IMG/VR virus record: IMGVR_UViG_2703718856_000008
Span: 1-40,953 of that record
Length of the DNA stretch: 40,953 nucleotides
Source of the DNA: a virus
Taxonomy: Duplodnaviria; Heunggongvirae; Uroviricota; Caudoviricetes
Strand: one strand, 5' to 3'
The position numbers and the translations under genes were made by a program. Below the pieces are notes generated by a model, which saw only the letters and a program-made list of their open reading frames with translations, searched no databases and had not been told where the DNA came from. Positions 29,708 through 36,247 of this stretch are shown piece by piece; positions within the stretch are counted from its first letter, which is position 1, and the number at the start of each line of letters is the position of its first letter.

Positions 29708-30550
29708 TCACTCCTGCGCCCATGAAGGCATTTCAGTTTGCCCGTAATCTTTGGCGGCAAAGTTTTCCTGCATAGCTCGCTGCTGCGGCCTCGGTTGAGA
29801 TTTCCCCTTTGGAGTCTTGGGCTCAAAAATCCCCTGCCAACCACTGGCGATGCTCTGGTTTATAATTTCTTCAGGTGTATATCCCTTCTCCAGACTTCTG
29901 CTTAGAACGTTGATAGCCTGAGTAACACTTTGCTTAGACTTGATCGACTTACCTATCTCCTTGCGATATGTAACCCACGACAACCATGTTTCTGCTGATA
30001 ACCAATCAGGCAACTCTGTTTCTAGCGGGTCGAACTTCTGAGAAACTTTTTTGGGGGATATAGGGGGTTTATTAATATTTTCTTTTGTCTTTAAAGAATG
30101 TCTTTTGTGTGTCTCTAACTTCGAGACATTGAGTGTCTCTAATTTGGAGACATTTTTTGTCTCTAACTTCGAGACAAAGTTGCTAACTTGGAGACACTTG
30201 CTGAATTGCCACGCAGATACCTCAATGTTTACACCGATTTGATTTCCATCCATAAACAGGCAATTCATTGAAATCAGTTCTTTTTTAGCCTTGTTAACAT
30301 TCTGCCTTGACAGTCCTGTTAACTGAGCAATTTGCTCATCGGCTATTCGATCTGTTTTCTTATTGAATCCATATGTTTTCCGGACGTAGGCCAGCATAAC
30401 TTTCAACTGGCGAGCGGTTAAATCGGCACTTGCGATAGCTTCCAGCAGCTCGTTAGCGAATCTGGTGTAACCATCATCGATATCAGCCACTCTTCGCTCC
30501 TGTTCAACAGGTTCACTCTTCGGCAGGTAAAATACTTCAGCAAGGCTCAT
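29708..30550 (-). CDS. O: Replication initiator O (lambda O-like; iterons inside the gene)
   Basis: Start taken at the ATG at 30550 (GGAGG RBS); conserved N-terminal block ERRVADIDDGYTRFANELLEA as in lambda O; ORF extends to 30583 (TTG). Confidence 0.85.
   Translation of the reverse strand: MSLAEVFYLPKSEPVEQERRVADIDDGYTRFANELLEAIASADLTARQLKVMLAYVRKTYGFNKKTDRIADEQIAQLTGLSRQNVNKAKKELISMNCLFMDGNQIGVNIEVSAWQFSKCLQVSNFVSKLETKNVSKLETLNVSKLETHKRHSLKTKENINKPPISPKKVSQKFDPLETELPDWLSAETWLSWVTYRKEIGKSIKSKQSVTQAINVLSRSLEKGYTPEEIINQSIASGWQGIFEPKTPKGKSQPRPQQRAMQENFAAKDYGQTEMPSWAQE
30111..30195. repeat. Origin of replication: four iterons inside the O gene, followed in the direction of O transcription by an AT-rich segment (30061-30105)
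   Basis: Direct repeats of the dyad GTCTC-N7-GAGAC at 30111-30127, 30135-30151, 30159-30175 and a degenerate copy ending at 30195, spaced 24 bp apart; lambda-ori-like layout. Confidence 0.75.
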
Positions 30551-31181
30551 TTCCAACCTCCGCATCAAAGCATTGGGCTTCAAGAGACTTAACCATCACC
30601 ACACTGCCATCTGTATTAATAACTATCGATGAGTTATATTTGCTTATCAGTTGCTTCGCGTAATCAATTCCGGCGCGAATAAGGAAATTTTTCACCGCAG
30701 GAAGATGACCAACTACACTACCCAGACCTTGCTCTATAAGCTCCTCATTAAGATCAAGCTCATTTTCATGGCGAAAAGAAATGAATGAGTCGTAAATTGC
30801 GTATTCTGCCGTCTCGCCATTTCTTTCAGGGCCAACCAGCGCCCTTATTTCATTTAGAGATTCAGAAAGATCATTATCTTCAAGCTTGAAAAACTCTCGA
30901 TTATCACTAAGCCTCTCTTTTGCAAAGGCTTTATGAATGAGTTTTTCATCTGATGCGGGATTATTTGAATGAAAGGCTGCTATCACCTTAAATGGCTTAG
31001 GAACGCCAGTAGAGGCTGAAATTTCTTTAGCCCTAACTTCTGGTGAATGCTTAGTCATCCCAATCTTATAAATTCCTGGCATGCACTCATTCGAAAGCAC
31101 ATAAACAAAGCCATTTGATTTAAAATCATCTGGCACCTTCATGCTCTTCAGAACCTGGAATTTGTCATTTTCGTATGTCAT
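30537..31181 (-). CDS. T5orf172 (GIY-YIG-like) domain protein with uncharacterised C-terminal domain
   Basis: 214 aa; NGFVYVLSNECMPGIYKIGMTKHSPEVRAKEIS...GVPKPFKVIAAFHSNNPASDEKLIHKAFAKERL..REFF matches the T5orf172/MUG113 signature; inserted between cII and O. Confidence 0.6.
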   Translation of the reverse strand: MTYENDKFQVLKSMKVPDDFKSNGFVYVLSNECMPGIYKIGMTKHSPEVRAKEISASTGVPKPFKVIAAFHSNNPASDEKLIHKAFAKERLSDNREFFKLEDNDLSESLNEIRALVGPERNGETAEYAIYDSFISFRHENELDLNEELIEQGLGSVVGHLPAVKNFLIRAGIDYAKQLISKYNSSIVINTDGSVVMVKSLEAQCFDAEVGNEPC

Positions 31182-31940: not shown

Positions 31941-32600
31941 ATGAAAATGAAATGGTATGAACTGGCTAGATCCAGAATGAAAGAGCTCGGCATAACTCAA
32001 GAGAAGTTAGCTGAAGAGCTTGGTATGACGCAGGGTGGAATTGGTCACTGGTTGCGCGGATCTCGTCATCCATCTCTTGACGAGATTGGTGTGGTGTTTA
32101 AATACCTTGGTATTGATAACGTCTCATTCAACCACGACGGTACATTTTCACCTGTTGGCGAATACTCATCTGCCCCCGTTAAAAAACAATATGAGTACCC
32201 TGTTTTTTCTCATGTTCAGGCCGGGATGTTCTCGCCTGAGCTTAGAACCTTTACCAAAGGTGATGCGGAGAGATGGGTCAGCACAACCAAAAAAGCCAGT
32301 GATTGTGCGTTCTGGCTTGAAGTTGAAGGTAATTCCATGACCGCACCAACAGGATCCAAGCCAAGCTTTCCTGACGGGATGTTAATTCTCGTTGACCCTG
32401 AGCAGGCTGTTGAGCCAGGTGATTTCTGCATAGCCAGACTTGGTGGTGACGAGTTTACCTTCAAGAAACTGATCAGGGATAGCGGTCAGGTGTTCCTACA
32501 ACCACTAAACCCGCAATATCCAATGATCCCATGCAATGATAGCTGTTCCGTTGTAGGGAAAGTTATCGCCAGCCAGTGGCCAGAAGAGACGTTTGGGTGA
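31941..32600 (+). CDS. cI: CI prophage repressor, chimeric: non-lambda XRE HTH N-terminal domain fused to a lambda-type C-terminal dimerisation/autocleavage domain
   Basis: C-terminal 130 aa ([73 protein letters not shown]...[10 protein letters not shown]) recalled as near-identical to lambda CI; N-terminal 90 aa differ; alternative start ATG at 31947. Confidence 0.9.
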
Positions 32601-32625
32601 TAGGAATGGATGTTAAGGATTAAGA

Positions 32626-33672
32626 ATGTCAGCGATTGATCAACCTGCGCAATATGTTATCAAGTCAGAAGACGACTTTGTATCTTTTGTAACAGAAATG
32701 CTCGGAAGGAAGGACATCGACTCAAGCGACTTCACATTCCCTAACGTAGTTTTCAGTGGATGGCCAAAGATCAATATTAATGTAAAAGGCGATCCAAATA
32801 GATATAATTCTTCATTGACTGCGTCAATGCTTTTTGGTATGGCAGAGCTTACGCATGAAATACAAAAAGCATTTACGGTAGTCAGTCACAGCACTCATAA
32901 TCGGCAGAAGCTAAAAGATGCAGAGAAAGGTTTGCTGGATATTGTCTACCGAATAAGCGAAGGCTCAAGCCAAGCGGATGGTGACTCAGATCCGATTGTA
33001 AACGGAGTGGTGACAGTGTTTACTCAAGCGATAGGCAAAATGACAGGAAGGCAAGCACTATGCGCCGTCGCCGCTATCGTCTTAGCTGCCAGCACGGTAG
33101 GCTATAAGTGGATCAATGAGTACTACGAAACACAGCGACATGACCAAGATTCTCAGGTGCAATTGGTGGAAAAAAGCACCAAAGCGGTAAACGAAGCACA
33201 AGACAATGTGCTCAAGTTGTTGATTAGCGGTCAAACAAACATTAGCAGAGAGGTTCTGGCTCACGGCGAGGATGGTAAAAGCAAGTTGCTTAAAAAGCTT
33301 GCTCAAGACTCGTCAGTTGAGAGGGTAACAATTGGTCAGAGAGTGGTAAATAGAGAACAGTTGAATACCTTAAACCAAAGACAATCAATTGATCGAAAAA
33401 AGGAAACTAGAAGAGATAACTTTTATGTCACGGGCGTTCGTCGCTCGGGAGAAACAAATCAGGACATAAATATTGACGTCATAAGGGTTTCAAATGGTGA
33501 ATCTTTCACCATAAAAACCTCAGCCGACATAACATCTACTGATGAGCTTCTTGAGTTTTTGAATGCTGTAGCCAAAGAGTCAACTGTTGAAATTTCATAC
33601 CTAGAGGTTGTAGAAAATGGGCACATTTCAACAGGGCAATTGATAAATATATTCCCCAGCGAACCAGAGTGA
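32626..33672 (+). CDS. Uncharacterised 348-aa protein with a central hydrophobic segment, co-transcribed with cI (rexAB position)
   Basis: RBS AAGGA 7 nt upstream; begins 25 nt after cI; followed by an intrinsic terminator; no domain recognised; hydrophobic stretch ALCAVAAIVLAASTVGY around residue 150. Confidence 0.6.
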   Translation: MSAIDQPAQYVIKSEDDFVSFVTEMLGRKDIDSSDFTFPNVVFSGWPKININVKGDPNRYNSSLTASMLFGMAELTHEIQKAFTVVSHSTHNRQKLKDAEKGLLDIVYRISEGSSQADGDSDPIVNGVVTVFTQAIGKMTGRQALCAVAAIVLAASTVGYKWINEYYETQRHDQDSQVQLVEKSTKAVNEAQDNVLKLLISGQTNISREVLAHGEDGKSKLLKKLAQDSSVERVTIGQRVVNREQLNTLNQRQSIDRKKETRRDNFYVTGVRRSGETNQDINIDVIRVSNGESFTIKTSADITSTDELLEFLNAVAKESTVEISYLEVVENGHISTGQLINIFPSEPE

Positions 33673-33683
33673 TGCACTCCAAA

Positions 33684-33712
33684 CCCGGCCTCAGCGCCGG
33701 GTTTTCTTTTTC
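33684..33712 (+). terminator. Intrinsic terminator ending the cI operon (timm-like)
   Basis: Hairpin CCCGGC-CTCAGC-GCCGGG followed by TTTTCTTTTTCC, 12 nt after the stop of the 348-aa gene. Confidence 0.7.
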
Positions 33713-33776: not shown

Positions 33777-33805
33777 TTGACTCGATAAAGTACAAATCGT
33801 ACTAT
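33777..33805 (+). promoter_or_regulatory. pL-like early leftward promoter
   Basis: TTGACT (-35), 17-nt spacer, TACTAT (-10), about 45 nt upstream of nutL and 270 nt upstream of N; flanking TTTGTA/TACAAA inverted repeats could be OL operators. Confidence 0.45.
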
Positions 33806-33845
33806 TTAGCCATCAGCAGGACGCACTGACCACCATTGAAGGTGA

Positions 33846-33876
33846 GGCTCTTAAAAATTTAGCCCTGAAGAAGGGC
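33846..33876 (+). promoter_or_regulatory. nutL (boxA GCTCTTAAAAA plus boxB hairpin GCCCTGAAGAAGGGC)
   Basis: Sequence GGCTCTTAAAAATTTAGCCCTGAAGAAGGGCAGCATTCAAAGCAGAAGGCTTTGGG matches lambda nutL as recalled. Confidence 0.8.
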
Positions 33877-34074
33877 AGCATTCAAAGCAGAAGGCTTTGG
33901 GATTGGATGAATGAGCAGGCTGATGCTCGACCAATGTATAAACAGCGCTCATGGCAAGCAGTAACCAATCTGCGCCTCAAGACAGCGTCACTGGTAGTGC
34001 GGGCGCTCTAACCAGTAAGCCGGGGTTCAGCGCCGGCCATCCAATCACCAAAGCTAACTGACAGGAGAATCCAG

Positions 34075-34401
34075 ATGGATGCACAAACACGCCGCCGCGA
34101 ACGTCGCGCAGAGAAACAGGCTCAATGGAAAGCAGCAAATCCCCTGTTGGTTGGGGTAAGCGCAAAACCAGTTAACCGCCCTATTCTCTCGCTGAATCGC
34201 AAACCGAAATCACGAGTAGAAAGCGCACTGAATCCGATAGACCTTACAGTGCTGGCTGAATACCACGAACAGATTGAAAGCAACCTGCAACGTATTGAGC
34301 GCAAGAATCATCGAGTTTGGTATAGCAAGCCACGCAGTGAAATGGGTGTGACTTGTGTTGGTCGCCAGAAAATGAAATTAGGCAGCAAACCACTTATTTG
34401 A
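34075..34401 (+). CDS. N: Antiterminator N
   Basis: 108 aa MDAQTRRRERRAEKQAQWKAANPLLVGVSAKPVNRPILSLNRKPKSRVESALNPIDLTVLAEYH... (arginine-rich boxB-binding motif), recalled as near-identical to lambda N. Confidence 0.95.
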   Translation: MDAQTRRRERRAEKQAQWKAANPLLVGVSAKPVNRPILSLNRKPKSRVESALNPIDLTVLAEYHEQIESNLQRIERKNHRVWYSKPRSEMGVTCVGRQKMKLGSKPLI

Positions 34402-34479: not shown

Positions 34480-34680
34480 ATGACTACGACTATTGATAAA
34501 AATCAATGGTGTGGACAATTCAAGCGATGCAATGGATGCAAACTGCAATCGGAATGCATGGTTAAGCCTGAAGAAATGCTTCCTGTAATGGAGGATGGGA
34601 AGTATGTCGATAAATGGGCAATACGAACTACGGCAATGATTGCCAGAGAACTTGGTAAACAGAATAACAAGGCTGCCTGA
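34480..34680 (+). CDS. ral: Restriction alleviation protein Ral
   Basis: 66 aa MTTTIDKNQWCGQFKRCNGCKLQSECMVKPEEM..., recalled as near-identical to lambda Ral. Confidence 0.9.
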   Translation: MTTTIDKNQWCGQFKRCNGCKLQSECMVKPEEMLPVMEDGKYVDKWAIRTTAMIARELGKQNNKAA

Positions 34681-34988: not shown

Positions 34989-35278
34989 TGAATAAGAGAT
35001 ACATCGTTGAAGTTATAGAGCGAGAAACAAAAGAAGTAATTAAACATTTCGAATTTGATAATTATAGAAAAGCTGACCGAGTAGAAGAAGGATTGTTGCG
35101 ACAAAGTAATCTCGAAAAATTTGATGTTGTCATGCGATGCGAATAAGCGCCTATAGCAGATTTACGAGTCTGCTATGTGAGCAATGTCGCTCGTAACTAA
35201 ACAGGAGCCGACTTGTTCTGATTATTGGAAATCTTCTTTGCCCTCCAATGTGAGGGCAATTTTTTTGATGGAGGATAT

Positions 35279-36247
35279 ATGAGTGAAGTAACAGATTTAG
35301 TTGTTATTGAAAAAGCAAATGCAATGACTGTATTTCAGTCTGCCGACCAGATTGAAGAAATCCTTCAAAAGGTTGAACGTGAAGTTATGTCCTTTGTGCC
35401 TGATATCACAACGGCAAAGGGCAGAAAGGAGATCGCTTCTCTGGCGTATAAAGTTGCGCAGACGAAAACATATCTCGATGGTCTTGGCAAAGACCTTGTT
35501 GCTGAACTGAAGGAAATTCCAAAGCTAATTGATGCCAACCGCAAGACAGTGCGCGATCGCCTTGATGAACTGAAAGCCAAGGCACGCCAGCCTCTTACTG
35601 ATTATGAGGAGGAACAGGCGCGGATTAAAGCCGAAGAAGAAGCTAAGGCAGCAGCTGAAGCTCTCGCAAAGCAAATTGAGTCTGACCATGAAATAGCTAT
35701 TTTGATGGATCGCGAATTTGACCGCCAAAGAGAAGAGGCAAGACTCAAAGCGGAGCAGGAAAAGCGAGAGCATGAAGAACGATTAAAAAGAGAAGCTGAA
35801 GAGAAAGCCAGAGCAGAAGCCGAAGCAAAGGCAAAAGCCGAAATTGAAGCAGCAGCAAGGCGAGAAGCAGAAGCTAAGGCCGCAGCGGAACGTGCAGAGC
35901 GTGAACGCATTGAAGCCGAGCAACGAGCACAGCGCGAAGCAAAAGAGGCAGCAGAACGAGCTGAAAGAGAAAAGCAGGCAGCAATTGAAGCAGAACGCAG
36001 AAAAGCACAGGAGGAGGCTGAACGAATCCGTCGCGAGGCTGAAGCAAAAGAGCAAGCCAGAATAGCAGAAGAAAAAAGAATCAAGGACGAAGAAGAGCGT
36101 AGAGCAAAGGATAAAGCTCACCGGAAAGAAGTAAATAACAAAATACTTGCTGACCTTATCAAGGTTGGCGCATCAGAAGATGTTGCTAAAAATATCATAA
36201 CAGCCATCGTAAAAGGCGAAGTATTCGCAACAAAAATAACCTACTAA
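35279..36247 (+). CDS. Highly charged coiled-coil protein (Lys/Glu/Ala/Arg-rich repeats) upstream of the recombinase
   Basis: 322 aa from the ATG at 35279 (GGAGG RBS); about 200 residues of AEAKAKAE / EREREAE low-complexity helix-forming sequence between N- and C-terminal globular segments. Confidence 0.5.
   Translation: MSEVTDLVVIEKANAMTVFQSADQIEEILQKVEREVMSFVPDITTAKGRKEIASLAYKVAQTKTYLDGLGKDLVAELKEIPKLIDANRKTVRDRLDELKAKARQPLTDYEEEQARIKAEEEAKAAAEALAKQIESDHEIAILMDREFDRQREEARLKAEQEKREHEERLKREAEEKARAEAEAKAKAEIEAAARREAEAKAAAERAERERIEAEQRAQREAKEAAERAEREKQAAIEAERRKAQEEAERIRREAEAKEQARIAEEKRIKDEEERRAKDKAHRKEVNNKILADLIKVGASEDVAKNIITAIVKGEVFATKITY

Follow-up and report, generated by a model that had tools for sequence, protein, structure and literature searches.

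A 348-codon gene in the rex slot of a lambdoid phage belongs to a large family of accessory genes and is a candidate for a new anti-phage function

The subject of this study is a gene of the virus record IMGVR_UViG_2703718856_000008 (IMG/VR; Duplodnaviria, Heunggongvirae, Uroviricota, Caudoviricetes), analysed as one stretch of 40,953 nucleotides (nt) hereafter called the window. The gene, an open reading frame (ORF) of 348 amino acids (aa) located after the cI-type repressor gene, forms a 1,067-bp cassette that takes the place of rexA-rexB of phage lambda and lies precisely between the stop codon of cI and the terminator tImm. The gene is real and evolves under strong purifying selection. It also occurs outside this phage, and members of its family are found repeatedly at accessory (“moron”) sites of temperate phages as well as at the edge of a satellite-like element. 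As judged from the sequence and from a structural model, its product is rather probably a single-pass inner-membrane protein with the N-terminus inside and the C-terminus outside. On the basis of position and neighbourhood, we lean towards an anti-phage function of some kind, and the family is a good candidate for a new one.

The limits of the cassette come from a blastn comparison with lambda. Homology ends at position 32614, 13 nt past the stop codon of cI, and restarts at 33682; the non-homologous segment is therefore 32615-33681. It begins at the ribosome-binding site (RBS) of the gene itself and ends at tImm. An original prediction, made from the letters of the window, had proposed a cassette swap at a known hotspot within a region otherwise close to lambda. 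The flanks are indeed lambda-like on both sides (Table 1), the borders of the swap are now known to the nucleotide, and the content of the slot varies between phages. The region between cI and N is a known mosaic hotspot (PMC8585504, PMC7067206), occupied by rexAB in lambda and by bstA in BTP1 (PMC8585504). We found an NYN-domain gene at this place in phage 2B8 and two small ORFs in HK544. In vB_EcoP-683R2, the slot is empty (about 400 bp) within the same immunity region, cI and N being near-identical (98%) to those of the window. Phages Louie and Dewey show the same partial match as vB_EcoP-683R2 (54-55% of the query), as judged by match coverage alone. Phages of the vB_EcoP-683R2 kind would be natural, isogenic-like controls for the cassette.

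The gap between the end of cI (32600) and the gene is 25 nt, and an AAGGA RBS is found at 32615-32619, 6 nt 5' of the ATG. Because the gap is so short and holds no terminator, the gene would be transcribed with cI from the promoter PRM, and its product would therefore be made continuously in the lysogen, as for rexAB and bstA. In BTP1, RNA-seq showed that cI and bstA form a single operon across an 88-bp gap (PMC8585504, PMC7067206); hence, co-transcription over 25 nt is a safe inference. On the 3' side, a Rho-independent terminator is made of a stem at 33681-33704 (9 bp, 6 of them GC) followed by TCTTTTT. Its RNA fold has an energy of -19.9 kcal/mol (z = -4.3), and none of 200 shuffled sequences was equally stable. 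The spacing to cI, the separate RBS, the likeness to the cI-rexA-rexB arrangement and the presence of pL, nutL and N directly downstream had all been proposed in the original prediction. They hold: the gene is in the rex slot, tImm closes the cassette, and a pL-like promoter, a nutL boxB hairpin (GCCCTGAAGAAGGGC, 33862-33876) and N follow in that order. The predicted strong terminator is also there, starting at 33681, 8 nt past the stop codon.

Purifying selection is apparent from the comparison with an 87%-identical homologue (locus L027). The nonsynonymous rate (dN) is 0.073 and similar across all three parts of the protein, the synonymous rate (dS) is saturated at about 2, and dN/dS is about 0.04. 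An identical protein is Orf11 of Escherichia phage phi458, and at least 1000 E. coli and Salmonella contigs encode the same protein, in every case under the name “hypothetical protein.” An initial protein search yielded 56 relatives across Enterobacterales. A profile search of 1.84 billion cluster representatives then gave 932 clusters (counted at 50% identity) at E <= 1e-3, with 573 of them at E <= 1e-10. The family is uniform, at about 330-350 aa, and almost all of these clusters fall between 310 and 360 aa; a further large search with the family profile added nearly no members. All members with an organism name are from Gammaproteobacteria. Since the gene is already in databases, as a hypothetical protein, as phrog_6191 and as mEp33204 of phage mEp332, it is not in itself a new discovery; the distant mEp332 homologue, located in the same slot, already bears the label “conserved hypothetical.”

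The only match in an annotated library is phrog_6191 (E = 5.8e-36, aa 7-342 against positions 5-331 of a 338-position profile). Searches of Pfam, NCBIfam and PADLOC with the 348-aa query gave no significant match. With 63 diverse relatives, Pfam and PADLOC revealed no common family, and the PADLOC output consisted of four scattered single-member matches. In the PDB, sequence and profile searches yielded no more than weak matches, in which the hydrophobic segment aligned with the membrane anchors of MotB and PBP5. Thus, with no Pfam, NCBIfam or PADLOC entry and no sequence relative in the PDB, the family is in none of the catalogues checked, in agreement with the original statement that no domain was recognised. 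Literature searches on mEp332, phi458, PhiR12, the rex-slot hotspot and prophage defence screens returned no study of the family. Pfam matches to FtsH_ext and fvmX3 (E 0.16-0.93) were rejected as noise. The GenBank label “T2SS GspM” carried by the PhiR12_x and mEp332 homologues was also set aside, as the query and the PhiR12_2, mEp332, Pmp14, Pseudoalteromonas and P. putida homologues have no Pfam T2SS-M/GspM match at E <= 1.

Two observations concern the gene models themselves. Many NCBI models of the family are 279-281 aa long and start at the internal Met68 (six of the relatives collected here, and cluster members). Such models lack the N-terminal motifs of highest conservation (GWP, G55), and their starts are probably mis-called. 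In addition, an 88%-identical copy (L034, 3060-4105 of IMG/VR UViG_2713897197_000016) is 2 nt longer and has six stop codons in frame; it is either a frameshifted pseudogene or the result of a sequencing error.

The viral contigs were scanned with the closer alignment as query. Three deeply diverged subfamilies of the protein, namely query/phi458, PhiR12_x and mEp332, are encoded in the cI-to-tImm slot of E. coli phages. They are mutually only 16-25% identical, and the distant subfamilies are full-length homologues (hhalign probability 100%, E 1e-46 to 1e-52). In mEp332, the depositors annotated tImm right after the family gene. Altogether, the repressors encoded just before the gene in the IMG/VR and genome loci are of at least five types. 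In every repressor-linked locus, a GC-rich hairpin with a T-run is found within about 40 nt 3' of the gene, and in the lambda-like loci this hairpin is the tImm core or a variant of it.

Elsewhere, the gene lies between icd and int-xis at prophage edges (six loci), beside smpB at a prophage end, or next to Hin-type invertase and tail-fibre genes. A P2-like phage has it 5' of a predicted baseplate-V-type gene, and it also lies after a DUF6246 gene. One distant member (P0075) is at the edge of a satellite-like element carrying a capsid gene, an AAA_25/Toprim primase and AlpA (locus L057, 4867-5840 and 9256-15308); some 2 kb upstream, on the side of the host genes, is a RES-Xre toxin-antitoxin pair. 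In Pasteurella phage Pmp14 (locus L003, 2665-5029), a helix-turn-helix (HTH) gene and a type VI retron reverse transcriptase (RT; PADLOC RT_VI, 2e-88) are directly 5' on the same strand, in what is probably a small defence cluster of the phage. In P. putida, the family gene is between HNH/mREase_IV-like and Helicase_II/MzaC-like genes, and in Pseudoalteromonas it adjoins a gene for a NERD-domain protein. A role as a retron component was rejected: the adjacency occurs in one locus only, and type VI retrons are described as made up of a small protein toxin, an HTH antitoxin and an RT. This distribution is that expected of a mobile, lysogen-expressed accessory gene, enriched for defence company.

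The AlphaFold2 model had a predicted local distance difference test score (pLDDT) of 65 with a shallow alignment; with the 63 diverse sequences, pLDDT rose to 87 with a predicted template modelling score (pTM) of 0.76, and confidence was low only at aa 161-178. An N-terminal alpha/beta domain (pLDDT mostly above 90, and 73-84 over aa 111-140) is followed by the hydrophobic helix, a helical hairpin and a C-terminal beta-rich region (Table 1). All near-invariant positions are in the N-terminal half: F43, W46, P47, G55 (invariant), L96, G113, S114 and M139. The N domain has a median identity of 26% to the query, as compared with 12% for the hairpin and 12-15% over the hairpin and OB parts. The assignment of the C-terminal part to the OB-fold class relies on a five-stranded closed beta-barrel, an inserted helix and significant structural superposition. 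The structural matches listed are OB-fold proteins, the top ones periplasmic or secreted, and none among the matches listed falls on the N domain. Foldseek found nothing at E <= 1e-3 in the PDB; in BFVD it found two full-length uncharacterised phage proteins, one of them from Leptospira phage LE1. No catalytic motif is evident in the 348-aa protein. CusF-like metal binding was rejected, the OB region having no Met and one His.

The segment ALCAVAAIVLAASTVGY (aa 144-160) is the only hydrophobic one in the protein, as the original description of two regions split by a single helix-like segment had it. Only two of the 35 proteins of the window, both with strongly hydrophobic segments, exceed it in hydrophobicity. 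On the Hessa scale, where a lower sum is more hydrophobic, it stands below the putative holin (4.3) and the SieB protein of mEp332 (4.4), and all ORFs of the window that have no strongly hydrophobic segment are at or above 4.4. At this position, 140 of the 183 full-length relatives have a Kyte-Doolittle (KD) hydropathy above 1.6; hydrophobicity is kept across the family though the sequence varies. Among the same 183, none has a second hydrophobic segment or an N-terminal signal sequence. An aromatic-rich stretch, GYKWINEYY, follows the helix. The charge of the flanks is more positive on the N side in 113 relatives and on the C side in 56. Hence, the helix of aa 143-163 is probably membrane-spanning, with the conserved N domain of about 140 aa probably cytoplasmic and the variable hairpin and OB domain (about 185 aa) probably periplasmic. 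Pfam searches on ten relatives with C-terminal halves unmatched by the profile gave no alternative domain that would fix the topology.

Table 1. Features of the immunity region of the window, predicted parts of the 348-aa protein, and blastn matches to lambda.
Feature	Position	Strand	Basis or remark
cI-type repressor	31941..32600	+	Pfam Peptidase_S24 8.8e-29, HTH_3 8.3e-11; C-terminal part lambda-like
Swapped cassette	32615..33681	+	blastn vs lambda: no lambda counterpart; stands for rexA-rexB (lambda 37213-35827)
348-aa gene	32626..33672	+	ATG start; full-length phrog_6191 match
N-terminal alpha/beta domain, aa 8-138	32647..33039	+	AlphaFold2
Hydrophobic helix, aa 143-163	33052..33114	+	KD19 1.72, Hessa-scale sum 2.98; AlphaFold2 helix from aa 141
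Helical hairpin, aa 181-227	33166..33306	+	AlphaFold2 helices 181-201 and 205-226; sequence variable
C-terminal beta-rich region, aa 231-343	33316..33654	+	OB fold at about aa 257-343; sequence variable
Rho-independent terminator	33681..33712	+	lambda tImm equivalent; right-hand cassette boundary
pL-like promoter	33777..33805	+	TTGACT-17-TACTAT; just 5' of lambda-like pL transcript start
pL transcript leader with nutL	33811..33901	+	96.7% identical to lambda 35583-35494
Antiterminator N	34075..34401	+	phrog_271, 1.5e-26; 92.4% DNA identity to lambda N
Ral	34480-34680		phrog_1055, 7e-49
blastn match, cI C-terminal part and 13 nt past stop	32190-32614		lambda 37637-37214, 93.9%
blastn match, tImm at rexB end	33682-33709		lambda 35826-35799, 28/28
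blastn match, pL leader and nutL	33811-33901		lambda 35583-35494, 96.7%
blastn match, N	34046-34376		lambda 35389-35062, 92.4%

Around the cassette, the start codon of the repressor gene is uncertain (ATG 31941 or 31947). The opposite strand upstream carries cro, cII, an inserted T5orf172 gene, and O-like and DnaC-like replication genes. The inserted gene (30537-31181, minus strand, 214 aa) is between cII and the O-like gene, a place where lambda has no gene. Its product has a T5orf172/MUG113 domain of GIY-YIG type (Pfam 2e-15 and 4e-16; phrog_8430), the same nuclease class as the effector of the SNIPE defence system. In the early-left operon, after Ral, an ORF of 340 aa (35225-36247, plus strand) encodes a protein with a long, low-complexity middle part rich in Glu, Ala, Lys and Arg; it matches phrog_1376, to which no function is assigned there, and has no Pfam match.

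What such a protein would do in the lysogen can be approached from its position and predicted topology. Our preferred explanation, a tentative one, is that it blocks superinfecting phages, protecting the lysogen at the envelope or at the step of genome entry. In this view, the periplasmic hairpin and OB module, which diverges fast, would have as its target part of the injection apparatus of the incoming phage or, alternatively, a host inner-membrane factor used by the phage for entry. The N domain, conserved and cytoplasmic, would serve to anchor or oligomerise the protein, or to couple it to a host partner. Support comes from the slot, which also holds the validated defences rexAB (lambda) and bstA (BTP1), from the conserved N domain as opposed to the variable hairpin and OB parts, from a helix of transmembrane (TM) grade and from the defence neighbours. 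In a bolder and quite unlikely version, the family would be a new class of single-chain, outside-in immune receptors. The periplasmic hairpin and OB fold would then detect tail-tip, ejection or tape-measure proteins crossing the periplasm, and a signal passed through the one TM helix would make the conserved cytoplasmic domain execute a response, so that infection would be sensed before any phage gene expression.

Several points weigh against blocking at the membrane or against defence altogether. The helix is Ala-rich and of moderate, borderline hydrophobicity (Hessa-scale sum of about +3), and the count of Lys and Arg alone is nearly unbiased between its flanks (85 vs. 68). The pTM value suggests that the two halves are confidently placed relative to each other; a true contact between them would hardly be compatible with a membrane separating the two. 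As a generic fold, the OB domain would also suit nucleic-acid binding in the cytoplasm. The conserved residues are mostly glycines and hydrophobics, and therefore give no catalytic clue. No defence model of PADLOC-DB v2.0 (2023), a catalogue that covers systems published up to then, matches the query. The DefensePredictor supplements contain none of six WP accessions of cluster members, of which one is from the query's 90% cluster and five belong to the PhiR12-type and mEp332-type subfamilies. The gene is rare: of 5,426 complete E. coli genomes, 18 carry it. The literature searches turned up no experimental work on the family.

It is possible, though we doubt it, that the gene is not anti-phage at all and serves lysogenic conversion, acting on envelope physiology or fitness like bor and lom, or has a role in the lysis-lysogeny switch. 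Genes of accessory slots are not all defences, no defence model matches, and a membrane protein with a periplasmic OB domain resembles the envelope-stress or chaperone proteins YgiW and CusF. Moreover, RexA and RexB are themselves reported (bioRxiv 10.1101/2021.04.19.439022, PMC11077077) to tilt the switch of lambda in favour of the lytic state. However, the CusF-type Met/His metal site is missing, the family recurs in slots of the defence-hotspot type (prophage edges, P2-like, satellite-like edge) with neighbours that include a retron, an HNH-type nuclease with a helicase and a NERD-domain protein, and fast C-terminal divergence beside a conserved N domain is typical of conflict proteins. Somewhat less plausibly, the protein would be an effector of abortive infection that does in one polypeptide what RexA and RexB do together. 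Its N domain would sense a phage product or a replication intermediate, the protein would oligomerise through the TM helix and the hairpin and depolarise the inner membrane, and the infected cell would be killed or arrested before phage release. The slot of two known abortive-infection systems, a TM segment joined to a large cytoplasmic domain, and defence-gene neighbours at other loci all fit this idea. Nevertheless, a single TM helix of modest hydrophobicity is far from the multi-pass RexB, the protein resembles neither RexA, RexB nor any TM effector of PADLOC, and the well-folded 185-aa domain beyond the helix is left without a role.

The protein would instead be cytoplasmic, either soluble or only peripherally bound to the membrane, if the helix were buried or formed an oligomer interface, with the OB fold binding single-stranded DNA or RNA of the phage; the outcome would be a nucleic-acid-sensing defence or a protein interfering with replication. 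The generic nature of the OB fold and a true contact between the halves, if there is one, would suit such a protein, which we nevertheless consider improbable. In hydrophobicity, the segment surpasses two proteins regarded as membrane proteins, the putative holin and mEp332 SieB, as well as every ORF of the window that has no strongly hydrophobic segment. Its hydrophobicity is conserved though its sequence is not, it is followed by the aromatic-rich stretch, the profile matches TM anchors of the PDB and a PHROG annotated “membrane protein,” and the top OB matches are periplasmic or secreted.

Two abortive-infection systems with experimental validation, RexAB and BstA, are already known from the slot between cI and N of lambdoid phages; here, that slot is filled, with nucleotide-precise boundaries, by an unrelated protein. 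The large size of the family, a confident model and the occurrence at several independent accessory or defence-type hotspots make it worth testing. If it is a defence, it would represent a new membrane-based mechanism in a single-gene system that can be cloned with its natural cI promoter and, as a functional class, it would join the repressor-linked prophage defence cassettes. If it is not, it is still among the commoner unexplained lysogen-expressed genes of enterobacterial prophages.

How, then, does the protein compare with known systems? Its full-length match, phrog_6191, is a PHROGs family that carries no functional annotation and thus gives a name but no explanation. The lambda Rex system has the same address, after cI, ending at tImm (28/28) and upstream of pL, nutL and N. 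Like Rex, the 348-aa gene is presumably expressed from PRM in the lysogen, and it would likewise provide a membrane component. In Rex, RexA is a cytoplasmic sensor with DNA-binding activity and RexB a multi-pass membrane protein, and the pair excludes T4 rII and further phages by abortive infection. However, Rex is made of two genes, whereas here there is one ORF with one hydrophobic segment in place of the several TM helices of RexB, and the large OB-fold domain is not found in Rex. Homology to either protein was rejected with hhalign and the 63-sequence family profile (RexA, probability 0.2%, E = 0.27; RexB, probability 0.3%), so that the original impression of no resemblance to RexA or RexB stands.

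BstA of BTP1 and its relatives is, like the 348-aa gene, encoded by a single gene directly after the repressor in the cI-N slot and with its own terminator. It shares the promoter of the repressor and belongs to a widespread family tightly linked to prophages (PMC8585504). It has a KilA-N-like DNA-binding N-terminal domain and localises to phage DNA, and no TM segment was described (PMC8585504). The 348-aa protein has a TM-grade helix and an OB fold. KilA-N gave no Pfam match in the query or in the 63 relatives and no PADLOC match, a weak test since the domain of BstA was originally found by HHpred.

The inner-membrane exclusion proteins (SieA of P22, SieB of lambda and P22, gp15 of HK97, and Imm and Sp of T4) are prophage or phage membrane proteins that block a second phage near genome entry. 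They are small (about 80-190 aa) and mostly devoid of large folded domains. The only comparison made with them concerns mEp332 SieB, whose hydrophobicity is comparable to that of the helix described here. SNIPE, also called PD-lambda-1, is a membrane-anchored nuclease that cuts phage DNA during injection; its TM helix is N-terminal, and the DUF4041 and GIY-YIG domains behind it are cytoplasmic (PMC13190303). As predicted for the 348-aa protein, it is a single-protein, single-pass inner-membrane system, and it sets a precedent for a bitopic protein that acts at the site of genome entry (PMC13190303). The predicted topology and the order of domains differ from those of the 348-aa protein, and DUF4041, GIY-YIG and T5orf172 gave no Pfam match in the query or in the 63 relatives. 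The 348-aa gene is at the address of RexAB and BstA and is a member of neither family. Conceptually, with no domain in common, it is close to SNIPE, and by its architecture its closest counterparts are the inner-membrane exclusion proteins.

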